Under the pieces are notes generated by a model. The model made no database searches. It was not told where the DNA came from and worked only from the letters and a program-made list of their open reading frames with translations. The translations under genes were made by a program, and so were the position numbers. From a virus, in IMG/VR virus record IMGVR_UViG_3300026519_000239, positions 1-64,000 of that record: a DNA stretch of 64,000 bases; one strand, given 5' to 3'. This document shows, in pieces, positions 830-28,900 of the stretch. Within the stretch, counting starts at the first letter, position 1, and every line of letters begins with the position of its first letter.

Positions 830-1336
830 ATGTCAGTTACAAATTCTACTTATATCGGTGCATTAAACCATCCTGAAGGATGGTGGAATGTACATAGAGA
901 GGCGCTCTACCATACTGATCCAAGATTGTTCCGTGGATCAGCTCTTTTACAACACCCATATAACCACCCACATTCTATTCATGGGTCTGTTAAGACTGGG
1001 TGTTATGAGCATACTGGTTCGTACCTTCCATACCATTCTTGTGAACCTATTGGAATTAAGTGTAATCAAGAATTGGCCCCTGGCTGGGTTCTTGGTAAGA
1101 AGTATAAGAAGTGCGATCTAGTGGCCGTATGTTCTCCTACAGGAGACACATATATTGCTCAGAGTCTTATAGATGATAACTCTGAGTATCCGTTGACTGG
1201 GGTTACGATGACACCTCCCACATGGAAGCTCACTAACCTCAAGACAATCATTGATGGATTAAAGGCTGGGTGTACAGCTACTGTTCCTGTGAATACACCT
1301 CCACGTATCCTTAATGTACAAGCTATCGGAGGTTAA
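830..1336 (+). CDS. Putative virion appendage base protein ending in an orphan Ig A-strand (NTPPRILNV)
   Basis: 168-aa first gene of the Ig-repeat operon. Its last codons GGA GGT form the RBS of the next gene. Confidence 0.7.
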   Translation: MSVTNSTYIGALNHPEGWWNVHREALYHTDPRLFRGSALLQHPYNHPHSIHGSVKTGCYEHTGSYLPYHSCEPIGIKCNQELAPGWVLGKKYKKCDLVAVCSPTGDTYIAQSLIDDNSEYPLTGVTMTPPTWKLTNLKTIIDGLKAGCTATVPVNTPPRILNVQAIGG

Positions 1337-1340
1337 GAAA

Positions 1341-2891
1341 ATGGCACTTACAGGTACTTTGAAATTTAATGTCGTTGATGACGAACAGTCTCAAGTCAAG
1401 CTGACTATTGATTGGGGAGATGGTCAGACATTTATAGATCCTGCTGTACCGTCCAACGGGCAGTTGTATGAGAAGAGCCATACATATGCTACTGCTGGTA
1501 CGTATACGTATAAGATTACTGCTGATGATTTACAGTCACAGAACAATATTGGTATTCACCAAGGACAATGGACTATCACAGGGGCAGCAAATAACAATCC
1601 AACAATTCAAGCCATTCAAGATAAGGTATGGCCTGTAAACCAAAGTATTGTTCCATTTGCTGTTTTGGCTTCTGATCCAGATGGGGATACTCTCACTTAT
1701 ACCGTCACTGGACTTCCTGCTGGTGTTACGTTTAATCCGACTACCAAGCAAATTTCAGGTACGCCTACTGTAGCTCAGAATGCTGTTCCTGTTACCGTGC
1801 AGGTTACAGATAGTAAAGGTGGGTCAGCACAGGTACAGTTCAATGCTACTGTTATTGCCCCTAATGTAAATAATCCACCTGTCATTACATTCACAGGAAC
1901 TCCAGCATTTGATGAGGCAGGGAATGTTATCGGTGTTACGCCAAGTGCTACAGATCCACAAGGAGACACTATTACTTATCAGTGGAGTGTTGTGTCTAAG
2001 CCTGCTAGTTCTGGTGCTGTTACCTTCTCTAATCCAACTAGTATTAGCTCTGGCATCAAAGTTAATGCGCCTCTTTCTGGTGGCACCTATGTGTTTAGGC
2101 TGACTGCTACAGATAGCAAGGGTTCTTCATCCAGTAAGGACTTGACCGTAGTCAAATCCACTACTGTCAACATCCCCCCAATTGTCCTGTCTCGTGCTGA
2201 TGTCAACACTAAAGTAGGTACTGCTACTCCTGCTACTTCTCCAATTGTCGTTGAAGTTAATGATCCAAACGGGGATAGCATCACCAGTATCACCGCTACT
2301 GGCTTGCCACCGGGGATGACAGCTTCCCCGAAGCTGCTGTTCAATAAGCTGGAGATTTCTGGTACTCCAACTACTGCCGGTTCATACACAGTTACAGTTA
2401 CAGCTACAGATGCTCAAGGAGCGCAAGGCAGCAGGGCATTTAACATCATTGTTGCTGCTATTAATACGCCACCTATCATCACTGTGGATCAGTTTGGTCC
2501 TGTTAATACAGGTGGTGGCGGTACTACTAATACCCCACCAGTTATCGCTACAACTAGTACTAGTACAACGAAAACAGGCGGTACTGTTATCACGCCTAAG
2601 ACTGAATTTGGCATTGTTGGCTCAGATGCAGATGGCGATACGTTAACGTACTCATGGACTCCGGGTACTGGATTGAGTTACACAGATTTCTCCAATGCTC
2701 AGTCTATTGATACTACTGTGACGTTACCGACTGTAGCAGGCACTTACGCCTTGACGCTTAATGTAAGTGACGGCACTACTGCTGTATCCAAAACCTTTAC
2801 TGCTGTGGTTCAAGCTGCTAGTGGCGGCGTAACTGGTGGTGTAAGCAATGCTGCACCTACTCTTGAACTTGGCACGCCAACAGGTGGTTAA
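1341..2891 (+). CDS. PKD / putative-Ig (He_PIG-like) repeat protein
   Basis: WGDG PKD motif and repeated N.PP.I...DPDGD.LTY...GLPAG...ISGTPT units. ATG at 1341 follows GGAGG. No signal peptide. Confidence 0.85.
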   Translation: MALTGTLKFNVVDDEQSQVKLTIDWGDGQTFIDPAVPSNGQLYEKSHTYATAGTYTYKITADDLQSQNNIGIHQGQWTITGAANNNPTIQAIQDKVWPVNQSIVPFAVLASDPDGDTLTYTVTGLPAGVTFNPTTKQISGTPTVAQNAVPVTVQVTDSKGGSAQVQFNATVIAPNVNNPPVITFTGTPAFDEAGNVIGVTPSATDPQGDTITYQWSVVSKPASSGAVTFSNPTSISSGIKVNAPLSGGTYVFRLTATDSKGSSSSKDLTVVKSTTVNIPPIVLSRADVNTKVGTATPATSPIVVEVNDPNGDSITSITATGLPPGMTASPKLLFNKLEISGTPTTAGSYTVTVTATDAQGAQGSRAFNIIVAAINTPPIITVDQFGPVNTGGGGTTNTPPVIATTSTSTTKTGGTVITPKTEFGIVGSDADGDTLTYSWTPGTGLSYTDFSNAQSIDTTVTLPTVAGTYALTLNVSDGTTAVSKTFTAVVQAASGGVTGGVSNAAPTLELGTPTGG

Positions 2892-2893
2892 CG

Positions 2894-4573
2894 ATGGCTG
2901 ATGGTACTCTTATTATTCCATACCGTGTTACTGACGCTGACAGTCCTGCTAGTAGCCTTCGTATTAATTTCCTTGTACGAGATGCCAGTACGCAAGCAAT
3001 TGTTAGTACGTTTTATGTAACCCCTACAGCTTTGGGCCAATGGCTCAACGCATCCAAGGTACTTCCTGCCGGTACATACACAGTTGACGGAATTGTTACT
3101 GACGGTACAAATGCAAGTTCTGTTCAGAAAACTAATCCTGTTACTGTGGTTCCGGGGCAGGTAGTTACTGCTTCTTGGATTGGAGGCAACACAACATTTC
3201 ATATTGATTGGTCTAAGATGTGGCCTCTGGCCAATATCTGGAAGTCCTGTAGAGACCCAAGGAGAAGCCCTCTTGGTTCCTCTGGTACACAGACATGGGA
3301 TAGCAATGATGAATTAGTAACCAATACAGGCACTGTCAGTACAGCTATTGGAGTGTCCTACCCTGAGTTTCCTAAAGGCACTTATGTCGTTGAGTGGGAT
3401 GGCTCAGGGAGTATGACTGTGAATGGTGTCAATGTTCCTTCTACCGGCGGTACTGTGGCTATCCAATCAGGTGCTGGTCCAGAAGGGTCTATTTCTGTGG
3501 ATATACATGGAGTATGCACAGGAATCCGTATTTACAAAGAAGGACATGACCCACTGAAAGCTCACCCTGATTTTGTAGCCAAATTCTCTCAGCTTGGCGT
3601 TATCAGATTTATGGATCTAATGGGTACCAACTCATCTGTAGTTGACTCCATTACTGCACTTCCTAAGCCAGAAGATAGCTTCTATACAAGACAGTCTACT
3701 TATACTCATGATGGTGCAAATCAAGCCAGATACGGAGATGGGTTGCCTATTGAAGTTTGCTGCATGATTGCCAAGGAGTGTAATGCTATTCCTTGGCTTC
3801 ATTCATACCATTTACTGGATGATGCTGGCATTACAGAGATGGCACGGAGAGCTAAATCTGTGATGGGTACATTGCCATGTATTCATGAGTTTTCAAATGA
3901 ATGCTGGAATGATCAGCCTGATTTTCAGCAAACCAACTGGTGCCGTCAGAGAGGCATTGAAGCTGGTTTAGACCCAGCAAACCAATACCAAGCAGGCTAT
4001 CGGTACTACGCTAAACGGGTCATTGAGGCTGGTAGGGCATGGAAATCAGCCTATCCAAATACTGTCAATGTTTTGGCTTGGCAAAAATTAGAAGCTCAGT
4101 ATAAGGACTATTGGCAGCTCAATAATGTGTTGAAGCCCCAGATTGATTCTATGAATGGCATGGGCGATATAGACGCTGTATCTATATCTGGGTACCACGG
4201 CGGGCAGATAGTAAGTGTCGCGGATTGGTTTAATAATGTTGATGCTTACATGGCAGACACTAAGTCCTCATGGCAGGGGTTTAAAATTAATGTTGCTGAT
4301 GCATGGGGCAACAAGAAGTTCTTTGTTTATGAGGGAAACTGGTCTGGCATGGGGACAACTGATGTCATGCGTGATGCTCGATTTCAAGCCAAATTTGAGC
4401 AGCATTTACAAGATGCTTTCGATGTAGGCATCGACTTGTACTGTGTCTACACCATCATTGCTAAGAATGGCTCTGGGCAAGGATGGGGCATTTTGGATTA
4501 TCAAGGCCAAGCAACGTCTCCGGGATGGCAAGCTATTCTTGCTAAACTGGGACTCAAGAGTTTTCAGGTTTGA
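2894..4573 (+). CDS. Ig-like domain fused to a clan GH-A-like glycoside hydrolase ('cellulose-binding protein' type)
   Basis: IRFMDLMGTN, GLPIEV..., PWLH, HEFSNECWN (candidate acid/base NE) and VYEG (candidate nucleophile) motifs. Confidence 0.7.
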   Translation: MADGTLIIPYRVTDADSPASSLRINFLVRDASTQAIVSTFYVTPTALGQWLNASKVLPAGTYTVDGIVTDGTNASSVQKTNPVTVVPGQVVTASWIGGNTTFHIDWSKMWPLANIWKSCRDPRRSPLGSSGTQTWDSNDELVTNTGTVSTAIGVSYPEFPKGTYVVEWDGSGSMTVNGVNVPSTGGTVAIQSGAGPEGSISVDIHGVCTGIRIYKEGHDPLKAHPDFVAKFSQLGVIRFMDLMGTNSSVVDSITALPKPEDSFYTRQSTYTHDGANQARYGDGLPIEVCCMIAKECNAIPWLHSYHLLDDAGITEMARRAKSVMGTLPCIHEFSNECWNDQPDFQQTNWCRQRGIEAGLDPANQYQAGYRYYAKRVIEAGRAWKSAYPNTVNVLAWQKLEAQYKDYWQLNNVLKPQIDSMNGMGDIDAVSISGYHGGQIVSVADWFNNVDAYMADTKSSWQGFKINVADAWGNKKFFVYEGNWSGMGTTDVMRDARFQAKFEQHLQDAFDVGIDLYCVYTIIAKNGSGQGWGILDYQGQATSPGWQAILAKLGLKSFQV

Positions 4574-4586
4574 GGGGTAAGAACAG

Positions 4587-6164
4587 ATGGTTGATTATGT
4601 ATTGAAGTTCCGTGTACGGGATGCTGAACAAAGCGCGTGTGATGCAACAGTTGAGTGGGGAGATGGTAGTGCTAATGAGTCTATTATTGGAATTGCTGCT
4701 GATGACTCTCAAGTAGTTACCAAGAATCATAATTACGCAACTAATGGTACGTATACATTACGGATCACTGCTGATGACAAGCAGTCTGATAACAACACTA
4801 CTGTCTGGTCCCAGTCAGTGACAGTCACAGGCAACACTGCTGCAAACTCTGCTCCTACAATTACACAAGTGCCTGATAAGACGTTTATAGCCGGGCAGGC
4901 TATTACGCCAATTCAGATCAGTGGTACCGATCCAGACGGTGATACCGTGAGCTTTACGGTATCTGGCTTACCTGCTGGTTTGACTTATGATGCAACCAAC
5001 AAGCAGATCACTGGTACGCCCACTGGTACAGGCAGTTCCACCATTACTGTAGTTGGTTCAGATGGCAAAGGTGGTCAGAGCACGATGACATTTAATGCCA
5101 CTGTTAGCGCTACTACACCTGCCAACAAAGCTCCTGTTGTTGGTTCAGCTATACCAAAGATTCAAGTACTCAAAGGACTGGCTAAGACATTCACTATCCC
5201 ATCTAATGCGTTTTTTGACCCTGATGGTGATGCGTTGACATACTCACTGACTGGGGATAAGTTCAGCGCAGCCCTAACTGGCAATACGATCACCTTTAAT
5301 AACAGCCTGAATAGTGGCTATTTAATGGAGATTACAGCTACTGATCCTAGCGGGGCCAGTGCAAAGCAGACAGTGCAGGTAGAATTAGTAACAGTAAGTC
5401 CCGGTACTGCTCAGGACATGTCATTTACCAATACTGGTCCAATTGCTACTTTTAGCTTTGTTCCTAAGACTTCTCCTATTTTATCGCCTCAAGCCAAGCT
5501 AACTGCTGAAATTGATTGGGGGGATGGATCAAAGAACACCTATATAGGGCTGACTGCTGGTTCTCAGGTACAAAGGCAGCATACATATTCTGCTAACGGC
5601 AACTTTACTGCTAGAGTGCGGGTTAAGCACGATGGTGCTACTGATACATCGTACTCTAGCCCGATCAGTGCACTCGTCACCATTACAGGAGCCGCTCCTA
5701 ACAATAATCCAGTAATTCAGGCAATTGGCAATAAGACCTTTACTCAAGGTACTGCTATTACCTCTATTCCTCTTGTTGGGAATGATCCTGATGGGGATGC
5801 GGTCACATTCACAGTCACTGGGTTGCCTGCTGGCTTGAGTTATGACGCTACTAACAAGCGGATTGCAGGAACACCAACCGCCACTGGTTCAAACATCGTT
5901 ACTGTGAACGCTTCTGATGGTAAGGGAGGAACTGCTAGTACTACGTTTACCATCACCGTCAATGCTGCTACTCCGACCGCTATCGCTATAGCTGATAACG
6001 TGGGCACTAAGAATCCTGGCGAGACATTCACATATGACTTAGCTGCCAATGACACACCCTGTAGTCAAGGTACGACGACCTACGAACTGGTGCCTGGATC
6101 TGAAACCAATTGTAGCGTAACTATTGACCCGATTACGGGTGTAGCAACAATCACTGTGCAGTAA
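4587..6164 (+). CDS. PKD / He_PIG / dystroglycan-type cadherin-like repeat protein
   Basis: Two WGDG PKD units, two GLPAGL.YD...GTPT units, an F.DPDGDAL cadherin-like unit and a truncated final Ig domain. Confidence 0.85.
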   Translation: MVDYVLKFRVRDAEQSACDATVEWGDGSANESIIGIAADDSQVVTKNHNYATNGTYTLRITADDKQSDNNTTVWSQSVTVTGNTAANSAPTITQVPDKTFIAGQAITPIQISGTDPDGDTVSFTVSGLPAGLTYDATNKQITGTPTGTGSSTITVVGSDGKGGQSTMTFNATVSATTPANKAPVVGSAIPKIQVLKGLAKTFTIPSNAFFDPDGDALTYSLTGDKFSAALTGNTITFNNSLNSGYLMEITATDPSGASAKQTVQVELVTVSPGTAQDMSFTNTGPIATFSFVPKTSPILSPQAKLTAEIDWGDGSKNTYIGLTAGSQVQRQHTYSANGNFTARVRVKHDGATDTSYSSPISALVTITGAAPNNNPVIQAIGNKTFTQGTAITSIPLVGNDPDGDAVTFTVTGLPAGLSYDATNKRIAGTPTATGSNIVTVNASDGKGGTASTTFTITVNAATPTAIAIADNVGTKNPGETFTYDLAANDTPCSQGTTTYELVPGSETNCSVTIDPITGVATITVQ

Positions 6165-6182
6165 TTTTAGGAGTTTTTTGTT

Positions 6183-7238
6183 ATGCCATTTTCATTTGAG
6201 TACAACATCAAATGCAACGGAACAGTGGTTGATACAGCCATTGTTACTGGACAGATTAGCAACAGCGCGCCAGTAATAACCTCAGCGGCTAGCAGTGTCA
6301 CAAAGACAACGTGTACTATGTCCACGGCTGATTTTGGTATCACTGTCACTGACCCTAATAGCGATACTGTTACCTACTTATGGGAAGACGTTTCGCCAAA
6401 TGGGTCAGTGACTATCGCTGATAATACTTTGCTGGTTACTGATATTTCATTCAATGGCGTATCAGGCTCAACTACTGCATCTTATGCTGTCAAACTTACG
6501 GTATCAGATGGGAACTTGAGCACATCGCAGGTATTCAACATCACTAAAGAGGCCAATAAGCCTGCTCAGTTGGAATCCAAGCTGCCTGATTTTCTCATTG
6601 AAAAGGGGGCCGCATTTAGCTATCAGATACCTACGTCTTCGTTCTCTGATCCAGAGAATGATCCGGTGTCGTTCTTTTTGTCAGTAGGGATGCCTTCCGG
6701 TATTAGCTTTGATAAGACGACCAGAACGTTTTCAGGGACTCCGACGTCTTCTAACACTTATGGAAACGGCGTATTATTCAAAGATACTGGTAGCTGTGCT
6801 AATGGAGCCAGTGTTGGGGCGTGGTTTGGTTGGACTGTATATGATCAAGCTGATAGCAATAACCCGCTGAATACTGCCATGGTTACTCTGAATAACTCAG
6901 TTAATGTCCCTTATCTAGTATGCGAGGTAGGCGTCCCAGTAGATTACCCGCTACCTCCGGCGGCTTCATTTATTAATGATCCCGCTGGGAGGGCGTTCGA
7001 GCTGAGCGGTGCCTCTTTGCCACCAGGCCTGTCTGTTGACACCGCTGCTAATAAGATCGTCGGTACGCCAACAACGAGTAAGCTTGCTGGTGTATTGCTG
7101 TACTGCAAATTCGCAGGGACTATATACGCCGCCCGTCTGACATCGTTCCCGATAAAAGTGGAGCCAGCAGGCACCGGACTTCAAGTGGGTGCTACTGGTG
7201 TACTTGAGGGTACCGATCATTCATTTCCGGGGTACTAA
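6183..7238 (+). CDS. Cadherin-like / He_PIG Ig-repeat protein
   Basis: FSYQIP.SSFSDPENDP, GMPSGISFD..TRTFSGTPT and LPPGLSVD...GTPT motifs. AGGAG RBS. Confidence 0.8.
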   Translation: MPFSFEYNIKCNGTVVDTAIVTGQISNSAPVITSAASSVTKTTCTMSTADFGITVTDPNSDTVTYLWEDVSPNGSVTIADNTLLVTDISFNGVSGSTTASYAVKLTVSDGNLSTSQVFNITKEANKPAQLESKLPDFLIEKGAAFSYQIPTSSFSDPENDPVSFFLSVGMPSGISFDKTTRTFSGTPTSSNTYGNGVLFKDTGSCANGASVGAWFGWTVYDQADSNNPLNTAMVTLNNSVNVPYLVCEVGVPVDYPLPPAASFINDPAGRAFELSGASLPPGLSVDTAANKIVGTPTTSKLAGVLLYCKFAGTIYAARLTSFPIKVEPAGTGLQVGATGVLEGTDHSFPGY

Positions 7239-7239
7239 A

Positions 7240-8817
7240 ATGAGTGCTTTCTCGTTTATGTACAAAATCTCCTGCGGCGACAATGCGTTTGCCGCAGAAG
7301 TATCTGGTGTAGCTAATAGTCCATATAAAGTCGCAGTGTTTGTCATTGCCGGGCAGTCGAATACGCATTTTGGTAAAAATGACGTACCCACTACAGCACC
7401 GTTAGATCGTTTGTACCAAGTCGCCCGTGGCGGGGCCAATGATGGGACTGTTGTCCCTGTAGCATCTCTTCCGCTTGACTTCTCTAGTGCGACTTCTGAC
7501 CGCGCTGGATTCGGTGCGTTGTTTGCTAGCAAATACGCTACAGACAACCCCACGCATGATGTGATTCTTGTACCCACTGGTGTTGGGTCTACTTCTCTCA
7601 AATCTGGCGCGTGGCGAAAAGGTGGAAACTTGTATCAAGATACGATAGCCAGAGTAGCTATTGCATTGGCACATCATCCTGATGCTTTTTTAGCTGGGGT
7701 ACTGTGGCATCAAGGGGAGTCCGATGTTGGTAACGCCCAATATCAGAGTCAACTTGACGCCATGATTGCCGACATGCGCTCTGATATCGGTGTTCCTGAT
7801 GTCCCGTTCTTGCTTGGTACACTGTCCCCTTTGTGGCTTGAAAATAATCAATCGGGGCGGGATATCGATACCATTATCAGAGGAACTCCATCACGGGTTC
7901 CAAACACTACCTTGGTGGACGCTGCTGACTACCCGTTATTGACTAAGTACATGCGGTCTGAGGAGATACATTTCTCCTATAAGGCACAGCGTGTTTTGGC
8001 CGACAGATACTACCGGGCTTTTCTTGGCCGGCGTAGATTGGAAGCTGCTCACGCTATTTCATTTACCACGAGCGCGCGCATAGTAGTTGCTGCTGGATTT
8101 GATGTCGATTCTTATATCGTGCGTTATAGTAATAATGGTACTGACATGCAGTCCGTGAGCAGTAACGGTGAGTTGAGTATCAGCGGTTTATCTCCAGATA
8201 CTTCGTATTCGGCATTTGTGTACGGAGTAATTAACGGCGTTGAGACACAGCCTTTGCCTGTACAGTTTAGGACTATGTCTGAAGCTCCTAAACTAGCGAT
8301 AGTTGGGGTAAGGGATAAGCCCACGAACGAAGTCACTGGCAACGTACCAACTTCAGTGGTGTACCCCGATTTAAGTACCAGTGAGCACGGATGGTACAAG
8401 TACTACAACGTATTTTCTGGTGGCGGAGGGCTTCGTACTGACGCGGTAATACGTGTTGGCGACGCTTATAAAAAAGTGATTCATTTTACGATTGAAACTA
8501 TGCCGAGTTCACGTGGTAACTTGGTGAGTTCTAATCAAATATTTTCACATCACCTGAGCGTATTTTCAGACGGGCGCATAGCCGCTGGGCATGGGACAAA
8601 TTTTACCGTTGTAGAATCGGCGCCTGGAAAAATTCAGGCAGGTGTGTGGTACACAGCAGAAGTCGAATACGACGGTAGCAACCTCTCCTTGCATCTGGAT
8701 GAGGAGCTTATAGCATCTGCTGCTGTCGCTCCGATACCTGTAGATGGTGCTGTACAAGTTTTCGCTGCTGGCAGCAACGCGGTAATAGGTGCATTTGACT
8801 ATGTACTTGTTACTTAA
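7240..8817 (+). CDS. SGNH (sialate O-acetylesterase-type) carbohydrate esterase with FN3-like and LamG/ConA-like domains
   Basis: AGQSN (block I), WHQGESD (block III), EEIHF (variant block V); GLSPDTSY FN3 motif; WYTAEVEYDGSNLSLHLD LamG-like motif. ATG at 7240 directly follows the upstream stop. Confidence 0.85.
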   Translation: MSAFSFMYKISCGDNAFAAEVSGVANSPYKVAVFVIAGQSNTHFGKNDVPTTAPLDRLYQVARGGANDGTVVPVASLPLDFSSATSDRAGFGALFASKYATDNPTHDVILVPTGVGSTSLKSGAWRKGGNLYQDTIARVAIALAHHPDAFLAGVLWHQGESDVGNAQYQSQLDAMIADMRSDIGVPDVPFLLGTLSPLWLENNQSGRDIDTIIRGTPSRVPNTTLVDAADYPLLTKYMRSEEIHFSYKAQRVLADRYYRAFLGRRRLEAAHAISFTTSARIVVAAGFDVDSYIVRYSNNGTDMQSVSSNGELSISGLSPDTSYSAFVYGVINGVETQPLPVQFRTMSEAPKLAIVGVRDKPTNEVTGNVPTSVVYPDLSTSEHGWYKYYNVFSGGGGLRTDAVIRVGDAYKKVIHFTIETMPSSRGNLVSSNQIFSHHLSVFSDGRIAAGHGTNFTVVESAPGKIQAGVWYTAEVEYDGSNLSLHLDEELIASAAVAPIPVDGAVQVFAAGSNAVIGAFDYVLVT

Positions 8818-8837
8818 TTTAAAGTGGAAAGTATCTA

Positions 8838-10469
8838 ATGGCTATCATTAAAATACCTTACAAGGTGACAGACTCTGATAACCCAGCTCCGTCATCTATT
8901 ACTGTGACCATATCCATCTACTCAGACCAAGGATTCGTAAAGGAGTTCAATGTAACTCCTTCTGCTTTAGGTGTTTGGCTTGAAGCAAGTACTGATGTCT
9001 CACCAGGTAGATACTATGCTCGGGGAACTGTTACCGACGGAGCCAAGTCAGGCACAGCACAAGCCACGCCTACGGTGATCATCGGCGATCTAAGACTGGA
9101 ATCCATGAAAGCCAATGTTCCAGCGTATGGGTGGACTGATCTGCAAGCTGATGCTGACAAGTTCTTGAATGGCCAATCTTGGTTTAGCAACGAGACTGCT
9201 GAAGATGCCCACTGGAATCCATCTGCTGTGCAGGACGACACTTCTCCATATCGAGGCTCTGCTAATCCAGTCTCCATAAAGCAAGCTTTCCAGTGGGGCG
9301 CTACTATCGTTGATTGCGCTATCGCCGGGAGCATGCTGCTCGGTAAGGGGAACTCCACGGGGCAGCCGTACATGGACAAAGTTATCAACTACCTCAAGGT
9401 AGATGCTGGTAACTCTGTCTTGGATTTCAGCAATACATCCACGTGGATGTCAGACGGCTACCTCAATGGTGACGCTAATCGGCTTGATGTAGCAATGTGG
9501 GCAAGTAGGCAGATCGAGGCTTGGCGGTATGCTAGGCCTTATGCATCTGCTGCGGATAGAACCACCATTGATACCTATATTCGCAATATGGCTAGATGGT
9601 GCGTGGCTTGGCCAGCAAGACTAGTTCAAAAGAACTATTCCGATGGGAATTGGCGAGCTGATACTACTGATGCTATGCCAAGCACACTCATACAACGTAC
9701 AGGCACCAACTACTACGATCAGTTTGCAGGAGGCTATCTGTACGAAGGTGGCCCTAAGATGGCTTGGACTGGTGCTGGTGGGATGGAGAACCGTCAGTTA
9801 ATGTCGTTTGGTACTGGTGCTGCTGGTGCCCAGATCGTGGGGGATACTCAGACCCTGGCTGATGTGAAGAAGTTGTTCTTCTTATTCCTCAAGTATTACC
9901 TTCAGGGAGATGCCTGCGATATGCAGGATATGGTCAGGAACTACCAGGATACTGGCAATAACGGTATCACCTACCCAATAGTAGCTGTCGATGGTTTGGT
10001 GCGCGCTGCTGACGCTCTGGCGCTATCTGGTGATACGTCATTACTCACGATGGAGACCACTGGTGGGGCAGTCCATAACGCTGATCCCAGTAGGAATACT
10101 ACTTCCACTCAGCCAAAGAGCTTGAAGAAGGCGATCCAGCGCATCATTGATATTGTCACGAGGAAAACCACTCTCTATGCAGTAGGGCATGGTGGAGATG
10201 CTACGTACATTCTGGACTTCCAGACTGGCTCAGATAGCTCAGGAAACAGATCAAGGTGGTCTCCTGCTTTCATCATGGGTAGCTGGTCGTATTTGTATCC
10301 TGATCTAAAAGACAAGTTACTGGCTATTGGTAACTGGACTGACCCCGGCCTGCCTCCAAAGGGCACGTCACCTGATGGCGACTGGTCTGAAGCCACAGCG
10401 CGGCATGGACAGTTCACCTTGAAGGGTGACCGTAGGTTCATTGGGTTCAACGTAGATAGGGGGTATTGA
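8838..10469 (+). CDS. Ig-like domain fused to an alginate-lyase-like (alpha/alpha) polysaccharide lyase domain
   Basis: N-terminus is paralogous to ORF 2894. The helical body has ENR.LM...A.GA.IVGD and D..R....G.TY patterns typical of alpha/alpha-toroid lyases. Confidence 0.55.
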   Translation: MAIIKIPYKVTDSDNPAPSSITVTISIYSDQGFVKEFNVTPSALGVWLEASTDVSPGRYYARGTVTDGAKSGTAQATPTVIIGDLRLESMKANVPAYGWTDLQADADKFLNGQSWFSNETAEDAHWNPSAVQDDTSPYRGSANPVSIKQAFQWGATIVDCAIAGSMLLGKGNSTGQPYMDKVINYLKVDAGNSVLDFSNTSTWMSDGYLNGDANRLDVAMWASRQIEAWRYARPYASAADRTTIDTYIRNMARWCVAWPARLVQKNYSDGNWRADTTDAMPSTLIQRTGTNYYDQFAGGYLYEGGPKMAWTGAGGMENRQLMSFGTGAAGAQIVGDTQTLADVKKLFFLFLKYYLQGDACDMQDMVRNYQDTGNNGITYPIVAVDGLVRAADALALSGDTSLLTMETTGGAVHNADPSRNTTSTQPKSLKKAIQRIIDIVTRKTTLYAVGHGGDATYILDFQTGSDSSGNRSRWSPAFIMGSWSYLYPDLKDKLLAIGNWTDPGLPPKGTSPDGDWSEATARHGQFTLKGDRRFIGFNVDRGY

Positions 10470-11103: not shown

Positions 11104-11841
11104 CTATGCTTCCACTGCCCCGTTAATAAAATTATTAGCAAAGACATCACGCTCAATAGTTCGCGTGCGCGCCTTTTCCTCAACAGTGTTGGCATAATTA
11201 TTTTCTTTCATTCTGTAACTCAGTTTGGCTACATTAGCATTAATGATCCTCTTACTAAGTTCTATAGCAAATTCATGTGAAAGTATCTTTTCCTCATCAT
11301 ATTTATTAAACCAACGAAGGATATTTATATCTTCGTTATATATTTCAAGTATTGAATGATCTTTCTCCCCGGAGTCAATATCATTAATAAACTCCGCTAG
11401 ATCATTTAGATTCATTACTACGCTACGTGTAAATACACGGATACTTTCAATAACTAATAGTTGAAGCTTCTCAGTGAAATCGGTTGAAGTAACTAAGTAT
11501 TCAACCCAGTTTGGTTTTAGATGTGCTTTTTTGACCATATCCAATAGATCAATTGCGTACCCTTGTAGCGATGTATTGGTTTCTTTAGTGGCTTCAGTAT
11601 CCCACTCAGATATTGCATCAATTGCGCTACTATCATCTCCATAAATTGTGTTGTGAACTGCTTGTGTATAGAAGAACAGATCACCAAGTTCTTCAAGTGA
11701 GTTATAGATGCTTACTGATTCAAGCAATTCATGGGACTCTGTAGCAACGCCCATAACTGCATGTAGGATGGCTTTCTCTTTGTCTGTAGCATCATGAGCA
11801 GGAATCATGAATTTATCATTTACGAAATTGCTGTAGTTCAT
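11104..11841 (-). CDS. MazG-like nucleotide pyrophosphohydrolase
   Basis: LHAVMGVATESHELLE...EELGDLFFY and a terminal N..KL..R motif. Confidence 0.7.
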   Translation of the reverse strand: MNYSNFVNDKFMIPAHDATDKEKAILHAVMGVATESHELLESVSIYNSLEELGDLFFYTQAVHNTIYGDDSSAIDAISEWDTEATKETNTSLQGYAIDLLDMVKKAHLKPNWVEYLVTSTDFTEKLQLLVIESIRVFTRSVVMNLNDLAEFINDIDSGEKDHSILEIYNEDINILRWFNKYDEEKILSHEFAIELSKRIINANVAKLSYRMKENNYANTVEEKARTRTIERDVFANNFINGAVEA

Positions 11842-12430
11842 TGTTGTTTCCTTTTGGTTTGGGTTGGGCTAACTGTTGGAAGTCAGCATAGTGATGGTTT
11901 CCCATAGGGCTATTTTGAGTTGTGAGTACACCGATAGGTACCCACTTTCCATTGAACACTCCAAATACTGGTGAGCCACTCATGCCACTTACTACTGGCT
12001 CCCCGTCCAATTGAATGATCCAAGTACCTTGGCTTATATCCCTATCTACATACACTTTCCCTGTGCGGTGTACAACACAATGAGAGCCTTCTGGATAGCC
12101 CATGATGTGTATCTTTTGTCCTATTACTGGTTCAGGAAAGTCACCCTCCTGTATGTGATCGTTTGGATCAGCGAAGCGCACAATGTCATTTCCGAGGATT
12201 TCTACTACATAGCCTTTTGGGATGATACTTGGAAATGTGTATTCTTGAGCTTTGAGTACGTGATATGCAGAATACCAGGCATCCTTGTACTTATAGTAAG
12301 TACCATATGCAGTACTCCTATCAGATTGATGATAGACCCGTTCAACCCTTAATGGGAATAGTTCTGCTTGTGATTCTGCCGTCATACTTAGCAGCAGCAG
12401 TAGCGTAATGAGCTTTATAAGTGTGTTCAT
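11816..12430 (-). CDS. Secreted trypsin-like (S1) serine protease
   Basis: Signal peptide MNTLIKLITLLLLLSMTAESQA; triad motifs SAYHV, NDI, GMSGSPVF; GGAG upstream of ATG 12430. Confidence 0.75.
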   Translation of the reverse strand: MNTLIKLITLLLLLSMTAESQAELFPLRVERVYHQSDRSTAYGTYYKYKDAWYSAYHVLKAQEYTFPSIIPKGYVVEILGNDIVRFADPNDHIQEGDFPEPVIGQKIHIMGYPEGSHCVVHRTGKVYVDRDISQGTWIIQLDGEPVVSGMSGSPVFGVFNGKWVPIGVLTTQNSPMGNHHYADFQQLAQPKPKGNNNELQQFRK

Positions 12431-12680
12431 GGTATTCCGAAATCTCCGTGGAGGATATTGATGGCTTATATCCTGCTTCCTCCAATAGAGCAATTAAGGA
12501 ACCAATTCTTATAGATAGATACACCGAACGGAACGATAGAAGAGGGTACTCATGCTCTTCATTGGCTTGAATCACTTCATCATATGTTTTCTTTATGGCT
12601 CTGTTGAGTTTGTCAATTACTGCCGGTGTTAGGGTTGATACGCCTTGCACAACAGGCATAGGTGGGTTTTCTTCAAACAT
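12342..12680 (-). CDS. Hypothetical protein
   Basis: 112-aa ORF with a GAGGT RBS. Overlaps the protease gene start. Confidence 0.55.
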   Translation of the reverse strand: MFEENPPMPVVQGVSTLTPAVIDKLNRAIKKTYDEVIQANEEHEYPLLSFRSVYLSIRIGSLIALLEEAGYKPSISSTEISEYHEHTYKAHYATAAAKYDGRITSRTIPIKG

Positions 12681-12753
12681 GTAGTTTAGTACCTCGTAGT
12701 TAAAAGGAGTGGTATCCTACCACTTAACTTACCTATACAGATGGTGTCCTCGA

Positions 12754-14754
12754 ATGTCTGAATATATCGATCATGGTGATGATCCAAGAATTGAGAAGTT
12801 GCAGCCTAAGTGGAAGAACCCACCTACACCAGAAGACTTATCTAATGTTCTCAATTCTTCCAGTAGTGAGTACCACAGCAATAAAAAACGCATTGATGAT
12901 TGGAAAGATCTGAGGCATGCAACTGGGAAGTACAAAATAAAGAAGTGCAATAACAAGCAACACTCTACTACTGTTCCCAAGTTAGCCCGTATCCACGCTG
13001 AATGGAGATACTCTTCACTTGCTGAGCCACTGCATGCTTCCAAGAAGTTAGCTAGCATTAAAGCCAATGGTGTTGAAGATATAGCCTTGGCTCGCCAACA
13101 ATCAGAAGTAGTTAACTACCATCTCAATAGGAATATTCGAAGAGTTGCTTTTATTGACAAAGCAGTACGTAGGTATGTTAATGAAGCAACTCTCTGTATT
13201 CGTTCTGGCTGGGTTAGAGAGGAAACCAAACAGAAGGTACAGAAGGTTGTACTTGGGGCTACAGGAGAGCCTATTGGAGAGATAGAGCAAGAAGAGATGG
13301 TCGTTACCAAGAATCATCCAGTTCTTGAAGTCATCCCTATTGAGCGTATCCGGGTTGACCCAGATGCTATGGGAGATTACGACAAAGCTCAATTCATTGC
13401 TTATGACTATCTAAGTAATTTGGATGATTTAAGAAAGCGTGGATACAAGAATCTGGAGGCTGTGAAAATAGCTAGGGCATCGGCTATCAATGAAGGTGTA
13501 GCCACATATACCAACTCTTCTAATAACCAAGTGTGGGTTACTGAATATTGGGGCAAGTGGGACATTAATGATGATGGTTCATTGGTTCCTATTATTGCTT
13601 CCTATGTAGGTGGAGTAATGATTAAGCTCCGTAAGAATCCATTTCCAGATGGTTTCTACCCATTCTCATTTGCACAATACATGCCTGATCCAGATAGTAA
13701 CTATGGGGAGGCTGATGCTGAATTATTACGTGACAGTCAGCTCATTAACGGTGCATTAATGAGAGGTGTATTGGATACCCTTGGTAAGTCAGCCGCAGGA
13801 CAAAGAGGCCTCAGAGCACAAGCATTGTCTCCTACTGAACGTAGGAAGTTTGAGAGGGGTGAGGACTACATGACTCGTGAAGGAGTCAACCCAGAGGATG
13901 CTGTGTATATTCATCAGTTCCCTGAAGTAAGCCAAACCCCATTGGTTCTATTGGATCGTGAAAGTAACTACGCAGAAGCTCTCACAGGCGTTAAGACATT
14001 CGGACAAGGTATTAATTCTACTTCTGTTGGGGATGTAGCCAGTAATGGCGAGAGAGCCATGGATGCAGCTTCAAAGCGTGAATCAGGTATTCTCAGGAGA
14101 CTTGCTGAATGCTTGTCTGATGCCTTCAAAAAGGTCAGCATGATGTGCTTGGCTTACCACACTCCTGATGAAGTAGAGCGCATTACAGGGCAGCCATACG
14201 TACCAGCAGAACCAGCAGGTATGCATGAAATGGATTTGACTGTGAGTGTACGTACTCCTGAACAAGACCAAGCAGATGCAGATAGGTTGGCTTTCATATT
14301 ACAAACAGTAGGTAATAACAGTGATCCAAAACTGGTTCAGCTTATATGGGGACAGTTGCTGAGATTGCAGAATCAGGACGACTTTGCTGACATTGTAGAA
14401 CAGTATGAGCCACAGCCTGATCCTCTTGAGATTGAAAGACAGCAGCTTGAGATTGAGTTGCTTAAAGCTCAGATTACAGAACTTCAGTCACAAGCTATGG
14501 AAAATCAAGCCAGAGGACAGAACTACCAAGCACAGGCTCAGAAAGAACAGTCACATGCTCGTAAGCTTGAGGCTGAGGCTGATAAAGCTGCTCTTGAGTA
14601 TGTGGAAGAAGAATCTGGTACTAACCATGAGAGAGAGAAAGAGTTGGCTTCAATTCAAGCTCAGAGCAATATTCAGCTAGCAGCTCTTAAAGGTAAACTG
14701 GAATTGCTTAAAGAGTCTGCTAAACCAAAACCAGCCCAAGGTAAGAGTAAATGA
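12754..14754 (+). CDS. Portal protein (N4 gp59-like)
   Basis: W.N.PT..DL, PKLAR..AEWRYSSL.EP, EYWG.WDI..DG, EALTGVK.F.QG motifs and a C-terminal coiled coil. Sits directly upstream of scaffold and capsid genes. Confidence 0.92.
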   Translation: MSEYIDHGDDPRIEKLQPKWKNPPTPEDLSNVLNSSSSEYHSNKKRIDDWKDLRHATGKYKIKKCNNKQHSTTVPKLARIHAEWRYSSLAEPLHASKKLASIKANGVEDIALARQQSEVVNYHLNRNIRRVAFIDKAVRRYVNEATLCIRSGWVREETKQKVQKVVLGATGEPIGEIEQEEMVVTKNHPVLEVIPIERIRVDPDAMGDYDKAQFIAYDYLSNLDDLRKRGYKNLEAVKIARASAINEGVATYTNSSNNQVWVTEYWGKWDINDDGSLVPIIASYVGGVMIKLRKNPFPDGFYPFSFAQYMPDPDSNYGEADAELLRDSQLINGALMRGVLDTLGKSAAGQRGLRAQALSPTERRKFERGEDYMTREGVNPEDAVYIHQFPEVSQTPLVLLDRESNYAEALTGVKTFGQGINSTSVGDVASNGERAMDAASKRESGILRRLAECLSDAFKKVSMMCLAYHTPDEVERITGQPYVPAEPAGMHEMDLTVSVRTPEQDQADADRLAFILQTVGNNSDPKLVQLIWGQLLRLQNQDDFADIVEQYEPQPDPLEIERQQLEIELLKAQITELQSQAMENQARGQNYQAQAQKEQSHARKLEAEADKAALEYVEEESGTNHEREKELASIQAQSNIQLAALKGKLELLKESAKPKPAQGKSK

Positions 14755-22961: not shown

Positions 22962-22987
22962 GTGCCTATAACCTTTTGGAGATCGTA

Positions 22988-25900
22988 ATGAGTAAGCTAG
23001 ACGATCTGTTGTCAGCTCTATCGACTACTGCTGATCAGCGAGTAAACGCCGCAATGGATAAGTACACCAACATCTTTGGTGGTCCTTCTCCTGATCAACC
23101 AGTTCAAGTCCCAAAACAACAAGAGGCTGAAATTGCCTCACAGCGAGCGCAAACAACAGTAGAAGCACTGAATCCTCAACAACCTGCCCCTGAAGAAGCA
23201 CCACTTACTCCTGAACAACGTTTGGCTCAGATCAGCGGTGTTACGGATATTGATCCAAAGAAGGAGTACATAGAGGTCAAGACACCTGACGGCAAATCCA
23301 AACTAGTTGATGCTACCAGTTCAGATGGAGATAACATCACCAGAGCTATCAGGAACACGTATAACAATACAACTGAGCGTGGGTATGCACTGGATACATG
23401 GGAAGTTCCTCATGGTGGCAAGAAGCAACAAGAAGCTTTCTTCAACAGTAACAAGGGACAGAAGCAGCGTGAAGCAGCGGCTCGTATCCTTGGTATTTCT
23501 CCTGAGCAGGTTACCGCTGAGCACATCTTCACACTTGGGCAGAATGCAGCCAAAGAAAGAGCCAGACTCATTGCTGAGCATGGTGGTTTAGTTGGTTCAG
23601 TAGAGCTTGGTGATGTACGTAATGATCCAACTACAGGCAATCGAGTACTGTCTTCTACCAAATTAGCGGATGGTACTGATCTTCGTGACTTATTGAATAC
23701 GCCTCTACTAAATGCTGATTTCTACAGCAAATATAATTCCAGAGGTAGAAGAGATTACGAACTTGGGTCAACTAAGAATCCAGATGGAGGGGCAGTTCTC
23801 AGTGACGCTGAAGCTGCTAATCCATCTGCTGTTGGTTCTTTGGTTCAGATTGGTACCAGTGCTATTGATGCCTTCTTGCGTACTGGTTTAGGTGGCGTAA
23901 ATGCAGCCGCTAATACTGGTGTACAGATTGCGGCTGCTTTACAAGGCGAAGGTATTCAAGACCTTACACCAGAAGACAGGCAGATATTTGACAGGATTCG
24001 TGACACTGAGAAGAAGGGCAAGACGCTACTCAGTAAGATCGAAAAAGACCCTGTAGCTTCCAAAATAGATGTCATTGACCAAATGACAAACCAAGCCATT
24101 GAAGCTACTGGAGGTACGCCTGAGCAGCCTGTTGATAAGCTGGATAAGTACATGCAGGAAGCACTTGCTCCTGAAGAATACGCTATTTGGAAGGGTACAG
24201 CTAAGAGACCTGATACTCCTATCCAGAACAATGCTTTGGACTCTCTCACTAAGAAACCAGAGGGTATTCTAGATACGCTATCTCAATCAGCGGGCTTAGC
24301 TGCTGGATTGATATTTGGTTTCGGTACTGTGAAAGCTGCTGCTAATCCATCTGCTGCTATTCAACAAGCCAGGCAGCAAGTTGAAGGTACTGGTTTAGTA
24401 GACAAGACAGATAAGACTAAGTTTCAAAGATACAGTGAGGTTAAACAGCAACAGGAAACTGCTGCTAAAGCCATTGCTAACCCAGTAGATACAGTACTAG
24501 GGACAGAAGGGCGTAACGATCAGCAAGACAGATTTAGAGTTAACGCCAAGACTGGCAGAGCTGAGTATGTGCCTATGCACAACGCATATGGTGACAAAGC
24601 AGCCATGGAGATTCTCGATGCTGGTGCTGAAAGGATGGTTAAGGCTGGCGAGAAAGGAGATTACATAGGAGTAGTAAGTGAAGCTGCGTCTACATTATAT
24701 GACGTAGTAACTAAAGAGAAGACAGCTACAGCCAGTGCGTTTGCTGATGTTATTGGTTTAGCAGCAGCAACGATGTTTAACAAGAAAGGTGCTGTTGAAG
24801 AAGGTACTGGTTTCGTAGGGAAACTTGCTGGATTCGTAAAGAATCTGCCTAAAGGAGCTAATGGTCCTCAAGCCCTTAATACTGCTTTCAAAGCAGCCAA
24901 CATCGTTGGTTTACAGCAAGACAAGCTCACTGAAATGGAAACCAAATTCACTGAGCTGAATAAAGGTGAAGCTCCTACCCCAGAAGAGTATGAAAAGATC
25001 AAAGATCTATCTGTAGTAGCTTCTGCTGTGGATTTACTAGGCATTGCTATGTTTACTGGACCAGGCGGTAAGGCAATGTCTGAGATGCTCAGTAAAGCCA
25101 CTACCAAAAAAGCTGGACAGTTTGCTAGCAAAGTACTAGCTGAGATGGCAGGTACAGGTATTAATGGGTTGGATGAGGTAGCTGTAGAAGCCATTACTCA
25201 ACTCGGTACTAGGCAGCGTCAAGGGGACTTCGATAAGAAAGCATGGGCAGTATCTTTTCTCCAAGGGGCGCAAGCAAAAGCTCCTGGGGCTGTGCTTGAA
25301 GTAGCTACTAAAGGTATTCCATCTATTCCCGGAGATGTACTGGACGGCACTGTGAAAGCAGTGAAGATGTACCAGCGTGTCAATGACGTTGCGAAGGGGC
25401 ACAAGTTCACTATTGATGAAGAAGGGAATGTTCACTTCAAAGGGAAGGTGATGCCTGGAATGGTTCCTCCTGATCCAGAGACAGGTAAGTATCCTACTGA
25501 GGTTCCTAAGGATGTAGAGAAAGCTATCAAGCAGATGATCTACAAAGGGCAGGGAGATGCTGTAGTTAAGCATATTGCCAATACGAGAGCAGTGCTTGAA
25601 GGAGAGTTTACTGAAGAAGATCTTCAGAAACGCATCATTACTCCTTCTGTAGATATTGTTACAGAAGCCTCCATGGCTGCTGATCAGGCGTTCGTTGATA
25701 CTGCGGAGGTAGAGTCTCCTGAGACCGGAGAAACCGTTCCTGCTGAACCTGCGGTGCCTCAAGAGCTTGATGTTACTAATCCAGAGGAAGTTATTGCTGT
25801 ACTCAAGAACCAAGACATCCCGGTGGTTCAGAGAGCAGCTATTACACTGGCCGTGCAGTCTCGTATGCAGACTATTTATGGGCAGACTGTAGCTCAGATG

Positions 25901-28900
25901 CAAGAAGCAATGACTAAAGGAGAACTGGAAGGAGACAAAGCTGAAGCAGCTATTGCTTTATTGGATCAGTATGAAGCTTGGATTGATGTACTGAGTACAC
26001 AGGTTGATTCTCTGCCTAAGAATGAAAGGGTAGAGGCAGGCGTTATCTATCAGGAAAAAGGAGATCAATTACTTGCAGATATTATTCGTGGATCAGCACC
26101 TGAAGTAACCAAACAGGACACAGCCAAGAGTCCATTGGTTCAGTCGTACAAAAAAGTACTGGATTACATCAACACTCGTGATGAGGAAGATAATAAGACT
26201 GCTGATGATGTACGAAAAGAGGTACTTCAAGACGGAGAGAATGCATCAGGTAAGAAAGGACTTATGACTCATATGAAGGCTTTGGCTGTCGCGGGTATCA
26301 GTAAGAACCCAGAGGCTTTGGCTTATGCAAGAGCTGAGGTTAATAGCTTTCTGGCTTCTCAAACTGACAAGCTAAATAAGCTGAAAGAGGCTGTAGATGC
26401 ATATGAAGAAAGTGGCAATCCTGTACCTGTTTACTTCAAGAGCAACATAGCCAAGAAAGAACCAAACTTTGTTGTAGATAATCCAGGTAAGGTACGTAAC
26501 TTTATCAAGGTCATTGAGCAAGAAGTTCAGATGATTGGTGAAGTAGCTAAGATGGGAGATGAGCTACACAACAAGTTGAAGAACAATGAACCAATACTTG
26601 AGGATGCGTTGGAGAAGCAATTAAAAGAGACAGGTAAAAAAGTTTCTGATATTGCTAATGCTCCTAAGCAGAATCAGAAGAAGGAAGACAATGTTGCTAC
26701 CCAGAAAGAAGATAAAGCACCTGTTAATGCTGAAGTACAGACCACAGATAAGGCTGATACTGCTCCTACTAAGACACAGGTGGATGCTAAGAAAGTTGAG
26801 GATAAGCCAAAAGAAAAGCCAGTAGCTAAGAAAGCCAAGAAGAAGAAAGAGAAGCCAAAGGTAGATGTACTCGGTGACGAGGTTAAAGCTGAGCCTACAC
26901 CCGAAGAAATCAAAAAAGATACTGAGGATGCTAAACAGCAACAAGAAAAAACCAAAGAGCAATGGCTTGAAGATCCTCTTGTAGCTGACATTAAAGCTGC
27001 ATTTGAAGAAGCTCAGAATCAAGATCCAGAAGATAATGCTGATATAGCTGATCTTAAGCCTGTTCTGGATCTCACGAAGACTGAGAAGGTAGCCAAGGAG
27101 ACTTCCAAGGAAGCAACTCCTATGGTGAAAACAATACAGTCCCATACGAAGAACGTATCTATCCTGATGAAGCAGATAAGTTCTCGTAGGTATATGCCTC
27201 CGGGACTGAAGAAGCTGATGGAGTCGGGTAAACAACTTACTACTGACTACTTCTTGAAGGGGAGGAAGAATCCTACTGGTTTGTTGGCTCTACCTTCACT
27301 GACTGCTATCGGTAATTATCTCAAGGATGTTGGAGATACTGGCCTTGAAGCATTCAGGGCAGATTTGCTTGGTGAACTTGGTCCTGCAATGAAGAAGGAG
27401 CTATTCAAGCAATTCCAGAATTCAGCTAACTACGTGATAGGTAGAAAGCTATCTTTGGATAAGTTAGCTACCAGTCCTATTGGTTTGTTTCTAAATGAGA
27501 AGAATGAACTGGCTCCTCAGCTACGTAATGCAATGCTGCACACTGCTGTTGAATGGATTGCTGATAAAAGCGTAGCCAGTGTATTGAAGACTGACAAAGA
27601 GGTGTATGCATCTCTTGGATTAGACATCAAATCAGACTTCATTACTCCTTCTGTACTGGATGCTCTTAGAGACATGGGAGAGCTGAGATCTAAGTTAGCT
27701 GAACAGTTGGGCAATCGTGTACTGGAAGGGCTTGGTATTGATCTTAACTCCGATGTACCTGATGCTGGATTCAGACAGAGGCTAGTTGGTTCTATTGGAT
27801 TATCCATGCTGTCTGCTATGGCTAATATCAAGGATAAGAAAGGAGAGCCAATCATTCACTTCAACAGAGTTCCCTCTGAGTTGATGGCTGAACTTACTGA
27901 GACTGCTTCTGTATCCATGGAAGCCAGTCCTGTGTATGTCAGTCTCAATATTCAGAGAGATGAGTATCAACGTCCTGTAATGGATCAATCAGGTAGGGTA
28001 CGTGTAAACAATCTATTGGCTTACAAGATCAGGAAGAAGACGAATCAATCTAAAGAAATATACAAGAAGTACATGGAGCTGGCTTTTGGTAAGAAACCAA
28101 TAACTCGTACTACGAGCTATAAGCCATTCAAAATGCGTAAGCCAGAGGATATTAAGGATCGTCCTACTCGTAATAATAGCTATGGGCAACTAAGTGAAGC
28201 TGAGTTGGATCATGTGAACCAACTGCAACAAGTAGCTTTCAAAGCCAATCCACTGATCAAGATGATGGATCTTAAAGAAGGAAGGATGGCTATTGCCAAG
28301 ATGTTCGGGTACGTAGAACCCACTAGAGATGGTGATATTCCTTCTTTACCGCTTGATAAGGTGAAAGGTCAGCTAGCCAAGAATGAAGCGATTATCCGTG
28401 ATCTGGATGCTGTACTGGATAAGCTTTCAGAGCAAGACCAAACCATAGAAGAACTCACTAAAGCTAGAGATGAGGCTACTGACCCTAAAGACAGGGAACG
28501 TTTACAACGTGAGTTAAATCAAGCCAGAAAGAAAGAAATCTATTTTCCATTCAAGATAAGTACATTTGGTCGTGCGTTGGATAACGCTCAAGATCTAAGT
28601 ATTCAGAGAAGCAAGATACACAGGAATATCTTCACTCCTGCTGAGTCCACTCATACATTCCCGATGAGCGATACCAAATCTATGGAGGCCATTATGAAAT
28701 CCTTCATAGAGCCTCTTGGTTTGGATCGTGTGCGGATGGAGAGTGATCCTACAGGAGAGTTCATGGATAGATTTGCTATCAAGAATGCCGATGGTACATA
28801 CACTGCATCTGATCCTGTAATAGAGAAGGGAATACAGGCTATGCAGGCATTTCTGAGAGATGACTTTTACAAGCCAGAAGACATTACAGCAGCAGTGGAT

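Follow-up and report, generated by a model that had tools for sequence, protein, structure and literature searches.

How might seven neighboring phage genes, several of which begin or end within what appears to be an immunoglobulin-like (Ig-like) domain, build a single appendage? The question is raised by positions 830-10469 of the window analyzed here, the first 64 kb of IMG/VR record IMGVR_UViG_3300026519_000239 (74,335 bp), which by its gene content belongs to an uncultured N4-like podophage (Schitoviridae type). The module consists of seven + strand open reading frames (ORFs), named here by the position of their first nucleotide, separated by gaps of 4, 2, 13, 18, 1 and 20 nt, with a Shine-Dalgarno-like purine run before the ATG of every one. 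A first-pass annotation made from the sequence alone had listed these seven ORFs, their tight packing and a clear ribosome-binding site for several of them, and had recognized two paralogous pairs, all of which hold: ORFs 1341 and 4587 match over their whole lengths (E = 1e-46, with about half of the first ~170 residues identical), and ORFs 2894 and 8838 share 45% identity over 78 residues (E = 4e-14). We regard strand complementation in trans between separately made proteins of this module as the best reading of the sequence, with a probability of roughly one half. The underlying observation, that Ig-like domains are split, is mostly confirmed, and its interpretation is plausible, being partly supported by sequence statistics and conservation.

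In the proposed mechanism, the seven genes would encode a branched receptor-binding and polysaccharide-modifying appendage, with ORF 830 as its root, ORFs 1341 and 4587 as stalks, and four tips: a GH-A-type glycosidase (ORF 2894), a binder made of Ig domains only (ORF 6183), an O-acetylesterase (ORF 7240) and a lyase-like protein (ORF 8838). Each protein would be translated separately and then joined noncovalently to the next through an Ig-like domain split at the gene boundary. The 14-residue C-terminal tail of ORF 830 would give strand A to the strand-deficient N-terminal domain of either ORF 1341 or ORF 4587, the tail of ORF 1341 would do the same for ORF 2894 or ORF 8838, and an N-terminal hairpin of ORF 6183 or ORF 7240, resembling strands F and G, would complete the truncated last domain of ORF 4587. 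Because there would be three sequence-distinct types of joint, each with two paralogous partners, virions could carry a mixture of tips. Orthogonal joints with two alternative partners per node do yield a 1-2-4 tree; the binding between the pieces, the topology of the tree and its attachment to the virion are what we infer from sequence. The proposal in its fullest form, a binary tree that assembles itself purely from three orthogonal split-Ig joints, with paralogous partners competing and mixed tips on each virion, is put forward as a tentative possibility.

The case for the cut points begins with the motif N-x-[PAN]-P-x-[ILV], the first strand of the repeats in this module, which occurs 11 times there and once elsewhere when all six frames of the 74,335-bp genome are counted. 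Eight of the 11 copies open intact repeats, one is an orphan inside ORF 1341 (2463-2504) that is followed by a Gly-rich linker, and the remaining two stand at C termini, one each in ORFs 830 and 1341. Both of these begin exactly 14 residues from the stop codon, as N-T-P-P-R-I-L-N-V-Q-A-I-G-G in ORF 830 (1292-1333) and N-A-A-P-T-L-E-L-G-T-P-T-G-G in ORF 1341 (2847-2888), which bears out the suggestion that the two proteins end in a lone first strand.

The proposed acceptors of the ORF 830 tail are the N-terminal PKD domains of ORFs 1341 and 4587. As whole proteins both pass Pfam thresholds; at their N termini, no full-length PKD match that includes strand A was found. These terminal copies align only from position 16 of PKD and from position 28-29 of PKD_4 (in ORF 1341, residues 6-69 correspond to PKD positions 16-73 and residues 13-67 to PKD_4 positions 28-74), and residue 1 of the two proteins falls at PKD position 11-16 and PKD_4 position 16-18. 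The internal PKD domain of ORF 4587 has room from profile position 1, and in a related external protein the intact repeats have about 20 residues ahead of the point equivalent to the acceptor start. Because the alignments begin late while intact copies carry these preceding residues, strand A is missing from both acceptors, in agreement with the first-pass annotation. Tail and acceptor together would come to 94-95 residues, compared with 96 for an intact domain.

The acceptors proposed for the ORF 1341 tail belong to another Ig family. In an exhaustive search with the N-terminal domains of ORFs 2894 and 8838, most matches were tandem repeats of an Ig family other than He_PIG. Pfam, run on three of the matched proteins, placed Big_13 in two (P0022 and P0030, E = 2e-47 to 2e-100) and mainly He_PIG in the third (P0017); it reported nothing for the N-terminal domains of ORF 2894, ORF 8838 or P0018, a 549-residue homologue of ORF 2894 from an unrelated assembly. 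A model was built from 25 repeats of nine external proteins, with the module sequences left out, and the family label Big_13 was verified by Pfam for two of those nine sources (P0022 and P0030). The model scored 42.6 bits with ORF 2894, 30.9 with ORF 8838 and 27.7 with P0018. In these acceptors, model position 28 aligns with residue 9-11 (residue 11 in ORF 2894), so that residue 1 lies at about position 18 of 105, after the A strand. The external repeats always carry D-T-x-A-P-x-x-x-I-x-x-P just before the position that matches residue 1 of ORF 2894, and all three acceptors match the Big_13-type family while lacking this first strand, as had been claimed for ORFs 2894 and 8838. When the ORF 1341 tail was placed in front of the acceptors, the alignment extended to model position 7-8, with a gain of 6.1 bits for ORF 8838 (30.9 to 37.0) and 5.4 bits for P0018. 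With these two acceptors, none of 119 C termini from this genome and none of 200 shuffled sequences did as well. The tail is therefore supported, at the level of sequence statistics and for two of three acceptors, as a good match to the strand missing from domains of the 2894/8838 type. He_PIG was also tried as the acceptor family and rejected as the wrong one: a profile of 134 external domains scored ORFs 2894 and 8838 weakly, and the tails did no better than controls. A complex prediction for residues 272-516 of ORF 1341 with the ORF 2894 N-terminal domain returned 0.00, which, for one pair without controls, counts neither for nor against binding. Taken together, the profile alignments support the view that two of the three junction types divide an Ig-like domain at the gene boundary, with strand A on one side and the remaining strands on the other.

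The third junction type is of a different kind. In ORF 4587, only 68 residues (5961-6161) separate N-A-A-T-P-T-A-I, which resembles a domain start, from the stop codon; the stretch is beta-rich and not long enough to form a domain. ORFs 6183 and 7240 carry 24-26 residues ahead of a canonical domain start (N-S-A-P-V-I, directly after the extension in ORF 6183) or of the esterase (in ORF 7240), and 68 plus 25 residues equals one repeat length. The two extensions share only F-S-F-x-Y-x-I-x-C, with six of 11 positions identical, a likeness that no other of 71 ORF starts approaches with more than four identities (p ~0.001 by shuffling). AlphaFold2 (AF2), given an in-frame read-through of the ORF 4587 C terminus and the ORF 6183 N terminus, modeled the flanking Ig domains confidently and gave the split domain strands at a predicted local distance difference test score (pLDDT) of 54-79. 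The evidence for this junction is thin, consisting of the matching lengths, the shared motif (p ~0.001) and a model of low confidence. Of the earlier claim that ORF 4587 ends in a truncated cadherin-like domain completed by hairpins of ORFs 6183 and 7240, the lengths and the shared motif stand; the cadherin-like label (Pfam gives a weak Cadherin_4 match, E = 0.05, profile positions 16-67 of 71) and the fit of the hairpins have no profile support. In the public gene call, ORF 7240 begins at a second ATG six codons downstream (519 aa) and loses M-S-A-F-S-F, half of the motif; of the two starts, the ATG at 7240 is better spaced from a ribosome-binding site (GGGG). A GTG at 7189 is likewise open upstream.

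Several results weigh against complementation. The ORF 830 tail adds nothing on the Big_13-type model or on the other profiles that could be built (external PKD repeats were too few for a profile of that strand), and the internal orphan strand of ORF 1341 gains nothing on any profile built. The ORF 1341 tail adds only 0.2 bits with the N-terminal domain of ORF 2894 itself, and for that domain hhalign against He_PIG repeats favors a register in which it is complete (88% probability). AF2 also models it confidently on its own (six strands, pLDDT 82-91), which shows a compact beta domain and says nothing of its stability alone. At the third junction, hhalign and hidden Markov model comparisons of the ORF 4587 C terminus, with or without the hairpins, gave nothing significant, the hairpins added nothing, and in the AF2 fusion model with ORF 6183 the hairpin is of low confidence (pLDDT < 50). 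Donors and acceptors are not one-to-one, and nothing detected ties ORF 830 to the virion. The Gly-Gly ends of the two tails, encoded by GGAGGT (ORF 830) and GGTGGT (ORF 1341), double as the Shine-Dalgarno sequence of the following gene, which partly explains the terminal Gly codons. The idea of inter-chain strand complementation, first put forward from the sequence alone, stands as far as the cut points, their conservation and the fit of the ORF 1341 tail are concerned, and is weaker for the ORF 830 tail, the internal orphan and the hairpin junction, which are left without profile support.

An alternative hypothesis is that the module encodes a conventional complex of anchors and branches, in which shared N-terminal modules dock through ordinary interfaces onto virion parts or folded stalk domains, and the orphan strands are what remains of a past gene fission or a recombination at conserved domain linkers, scars kept for the sake of the next gene's ribosome-binding site. 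Branched receptor-binding complexes of this sort are known from phages G7C (gp63.1/gp66, N4-like) and K1-5, the KP32/KP34 groups and CBA120 (TSP1-4), in which adjacent genes encode several enzymatic receptor-binding proteins attached through conserved N-terminal peptides or domains, and such shared modules are the accepted grammar of phages with multiple tailspikes (PMC6872550, PMC9569702, PMC8825819). The likeness is considerable: the module here has three pairs of shared N-terminal modules, its tips include an esterase and a GH-A fold, modules are reused for adding tips in both cases, and G7C is itself N4-like, with an SGNH deacetylase as its side branch that recalls the esterase of ORF 7240. 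The double use of the Gly-Gly codons would suit this reading, as would the identical motif and Gly-rich linker inside ORF 1341, where no partner is needed, and the confident model of the ORF 2894 domain alone. Two further fiber-like ORFs in the genome (1,084 and 359 aa) are candidates for a virion-proximal anchor. The known complexes differ, however, in being built from trimeric spikes with T4gp10-like or XD docking domains. Neither of these branching domains, nor any tailspike-attachment family, is listed by Pfam or PHROG, which cover sequence families, for any of the seven proteins. The stalks here are instead beads on a string of PKD, He_PIG and Big_13 repeats, with joints that coincide with cuts inside Ig folds. 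Both tails measure exactly 14 residues, two unrelated Ig families are cut at a common structural position, the cut is kept at 45% identity, and the ORF 1341 tail fits the missing strand. All four would be unexpected for neutral scars, and we consider this alternative unlikely.

A further alternative is that recoding, by frameshifting or stop codon read-through, fuses neighboring ORFs, so that the Ig domains are continuous in some products, like the Ig-like extensions at the C termini of other structural proteins of phages. Phage proteins repeatedly acquire Ig-like domains through frameshifting (PMC5009743), the frame of the downstream ORF stays open through each tail, and ORFs 4587 and 6183 share a frame, with TAA TTT TAG GAG TTT TTT GTT between them (6162-6182). 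The shifts required would nevertheless vary from junction to junction (+1, then -1, then in-frame read-through of both TAA and TAG, then +1), and a shift anywhere other than at the stop codon would destroy the strand. No slippery heptamer lies within the overlap windows, and each downstream gene begins with an ATG normally spaced from a Shine-Dalgarno sequence of its own. Since tRNA genes are absent from the genome, the phage encodes no suppressor. We judge recoding to be highly improbable. The boundary between ORFs 4587 and 6183 looks like a gene fission fixed by the second stop. That stop (TAG) overlaps the AGGAG ribosome-binding site.

That the splits reflect decay of one or two former giant fiber genes, or an assembly artifact, is scarcely credible: tight packing and domain pieces at gene ends do resemble the products of nonsense mutation, but in a ~98% identical strain from an independent 2025 run every junction is spanned by contigs with no gap, 27 of the 38 coding differences shown between the two are synonymous and 11 nonsynonymous, the paralogous pairs have common start points, and P0018, on its 4.5-kb contig and at 45% identity, starts at the same residue as ORF 2894. 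The first-pass annotation had named assembly error or decay as what would undo its proposal; because the independent strain, the synonymous excess and the start of P0018 agree, we regard both as unlikely, and with regard to the check it had suggested, a search for the same split points in relatives, the boundaries are kept in the independent strain and the start point in P0018. All five differences within the ORF 2894 N-terminal domain are synonymous. Conservation of a stop codon could be read at the 1341/2894 boundary, the one junction with nearby differences listed. Since only a synonymous site at 2885 and an intergenic site at 2892 differ there, with nothing at 2889-2891, the ORF 1341 stop is retained in the independent strain. 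No DNA repeats were found at the junctions, which makes a shufflon or cassette switch unlikely.

In the stalk, 237 nt (79 codons) of ORF 4587 (window 5725-5963), about one He_PIG repeat (residues 380-458), are missing from one contig of the independent strain, whereas a second contig from that run includes them. With only 29 letters on one side, the joint is weak; it may represent a repeat-number variant. Relatives of the module were scarce. Among GenBank phages, nothing matched it as DNA, nothing matched ORFs 2894 and 8838 as protein, and ORF 4587 had only a partial match to He_PIG repeats in two Staphylococcus phage records. No relatives were found among IMG/VR contigs, JGI metagenome contigs or species genomes, and two distant N4-like contigs located through the portal were without the module. 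No RNA datasets were listed among the sequencing runs that contain the phage, and promoter-like and terminator-like sites were no commoner within the module than in shuffled sequence.

How much of the proposed mechanism is new? In the baseplate of Lactococcus phage Tuc2009, BppA is an accessory protein that binds carbohydrate and is encoded by a gene of its own; a beta-sheet of its small, Ig-like beta-sandwich domain is completed by a C-terminal beta-hairpin of about 25 residues from BppU, and the composite seen in the crystal structure resembles a titin Ig domain (PMC4742702). That one chain can complete the Ig fold of another in a phage adsorption device is therefore already published, and it is this hairpin-completes-sandwich mechanism that is proposed for ORF 4587 with ORF 6183 or ORF 7240. 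Tuc2009 differs in that its hairpin is C-terminal, whereas those of ORFs 6183 and 7240 are N-terminal. It has a single joint, in the baseplate of a siphophage; alternative partners, joints made by a lone A strand and a multilevel tree are all absent, and its proteins have no sequence relation to those described here. Given this joint and the branched complexes discussed above, the first-pass statement that no described phage system has such a grammar was too strong. The module combines two known kinds of system, branched receptor-binding complexes and completion of a fold by a hairpin or strand; in the literature, we found no description of gene boundaries that systematically cut Ig domains in phage fibers.

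Two nonphage systems invite comparison. In chaperone-usher pili, an Ig-like fold short of one strand borrows it from the neighboring subunit, which makes assembly ordered and specific. In pilins it is the C-terminal G strand that is absent and an N-terminal extension that takes its place, whereas here strand A is missing and a C-terminal tail would donate it; furthermore, phage proteins are made in the cytoplasm without chaperone, usher or secretion, and neither Pfam nor PHROG revealed periplasmic chaperone or usher genes in the module. The joints could work like donor-strand complementation without belonging to that family. In the cellulosome, a scaffold holds interchangeable enzymes through orthogonal plug-and-socket modules, cohesin and dockerin. 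Unlike the split domains proposed here, these are complete and independently folded, and dockerin-family matches were found only in unrelated database proteins.

The gene products of the module and the endolysin gene that closes it are listed in Table 1. By eye, no signal peptide was seen in any of the seven proteins, as the first-pass annotation had stated. ORF 830 has no Pfam or PHROG family, and no homologue but itself among 5.8 billion clusters. In Pfam, both stalks are strings of PKD, He_PIG and K319L-like PKD repeats; in ORF 1341 the N-terminal PKD domain without strand A (1341-1589) is followed by He_PIG, K319L-like PKD and PKD-type repeats, and in ORF 4587 the internal PKD domain is intact. 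Among the tips, ORF 2894 has a glycoside-hydrolase-like domain with a clan GH-A (beta/alpha)8 fold at about 3566-4528. Its AF2 model aligned with a GH44 xyloglucanase over 239 residues (VIA-align, Z = 13.2, root mean square deviation 3.7), with GH79 and GH51 enzymes next, while ORF 2894 had no sequence match in Pfam or the PDB and Foldseek gave only low template modeling (TM) scores. ORF 7240 encodes a carbohydrate O-acetylesterase of the SASA/SGNH type at 7330-8025 (Pfam SASA, E = 1.3e-32; PHROG 25867, "tail protein"). For ORF 8838, an atlas search matched Alginate_lyase clusters (feature score 0.79-0.82, TM score 0.51), and an alginate-lyase-like identity for its alpha-rich domain is a lead only.

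Table 1. Coordinates in the window of the seven module ORFs and the adjoining endolysin gene
Feature	Start	End	Strand	Description
ORF 830, 168 aa, proposed root/adaptor	830	1336	+	C-terminal 14-residue orphan strand
ORF 1341, 516 aa, Ig-repeat stalk	1341	2891	+	PKD, He_PIG and K319L-like PKD repeats (Pfam)
ORF 2894, 559 aa, tip 1	2894	4573	+	Big_13-type Ig domain without strand A (2894-3151); GH-A-like domain
ORF 4587, 525 aa, second Ig-repeat stalk	4587	6164	+	PKD without strand A (4587-4844), He_PIG, internal PKD
ORF 6183, 351 aa, tip 2, Ig domains only	6183	7238	+	26-residue N-terminal hairpin-like extension (6183-6260)
ORF 7240, 525 aa, tip 3	7240	8817	+	N-terminal 24-26-residue extension (7240-7317), esterase, fn3-like, LamG-like
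ORF 8838, 543 aa, tip 4	8838	10469	+	Big_13-type N-terminal domain without strand A (8838-9083); alpha-rich domain
Endolysin, M15 peptidase type	10471	10965	+	PHROG 465, E = 5e-31; closes the module

The phage probably comes from a hydrothermal-vent metagenome, one of the public runs that contain its sequence. Its portal (12709-14754) is ~40% identical over 88% of its length to those of N4-like Salmonella, Shigella and Klebsiella phages (tblastn), and the major head protein (PHROG 1357), terminase (PHROG 38) and a virion protein (PHROG 2125) were all found, with N4-type portal, capsid and terminase genes in the order of the family. A 3,653-aa ORF at 22976-33937 has the size and the position expected of the N4 virion RNA polymerase and is a candidate for it. 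The module lies between the endolysin gene directly downstream and a block of terminase and virion-protein genes upstream, at the other end of the record, a location that corresponds to the one at which N4-like phages encode their adsorption apparatus (PMC9569702). The two additional fiber-like ORFs stand between the virion-protein gene and the module: the 1,084-aa ORF (genome 69233-72487, L002 5232-8486) is internally duplicated and belongs to no family in Pfam or PHROG, and the 359-aa ORF (genome 73084-74163, L002 9083-10162) has a long coiled coil. A small ORF at L002 4837-5175 (on a scale where L002 5232 is genome 69233) matches the Rz1-like LysC lysis family (E = 2.5e-12), and the entire fiber module lies between it and the endolysin gene. 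Between the endolysin and portal genes, a 225-aa ORF on the - strand (11816-12493) begins with a hydrophobic, signal-like stretch, and its G-M-S-G-S-P motif recalls serine proteases of the chymotrypsin type.

If complementation in trans is wrong, the module remains an unusual receptor-binding cluster of Ig beads with four tips in an N4-like vent phage. If it is right, the module would be a plug-and-socket system that occurs naturally and is genetically portable, through which phage host-range modules would be swapped as cassettes of a tip plus half a domain, their fit set by a strand or hairpin of 14-26 residues. It would provide a source of small orthogonal protein connectors and a simple rule for predicting the assembly of multi-tip adsorption complexes from sequence alone, and the mechanism seen once by crystal structure in Tuc2009 would be extended to a general grammar of assembly.

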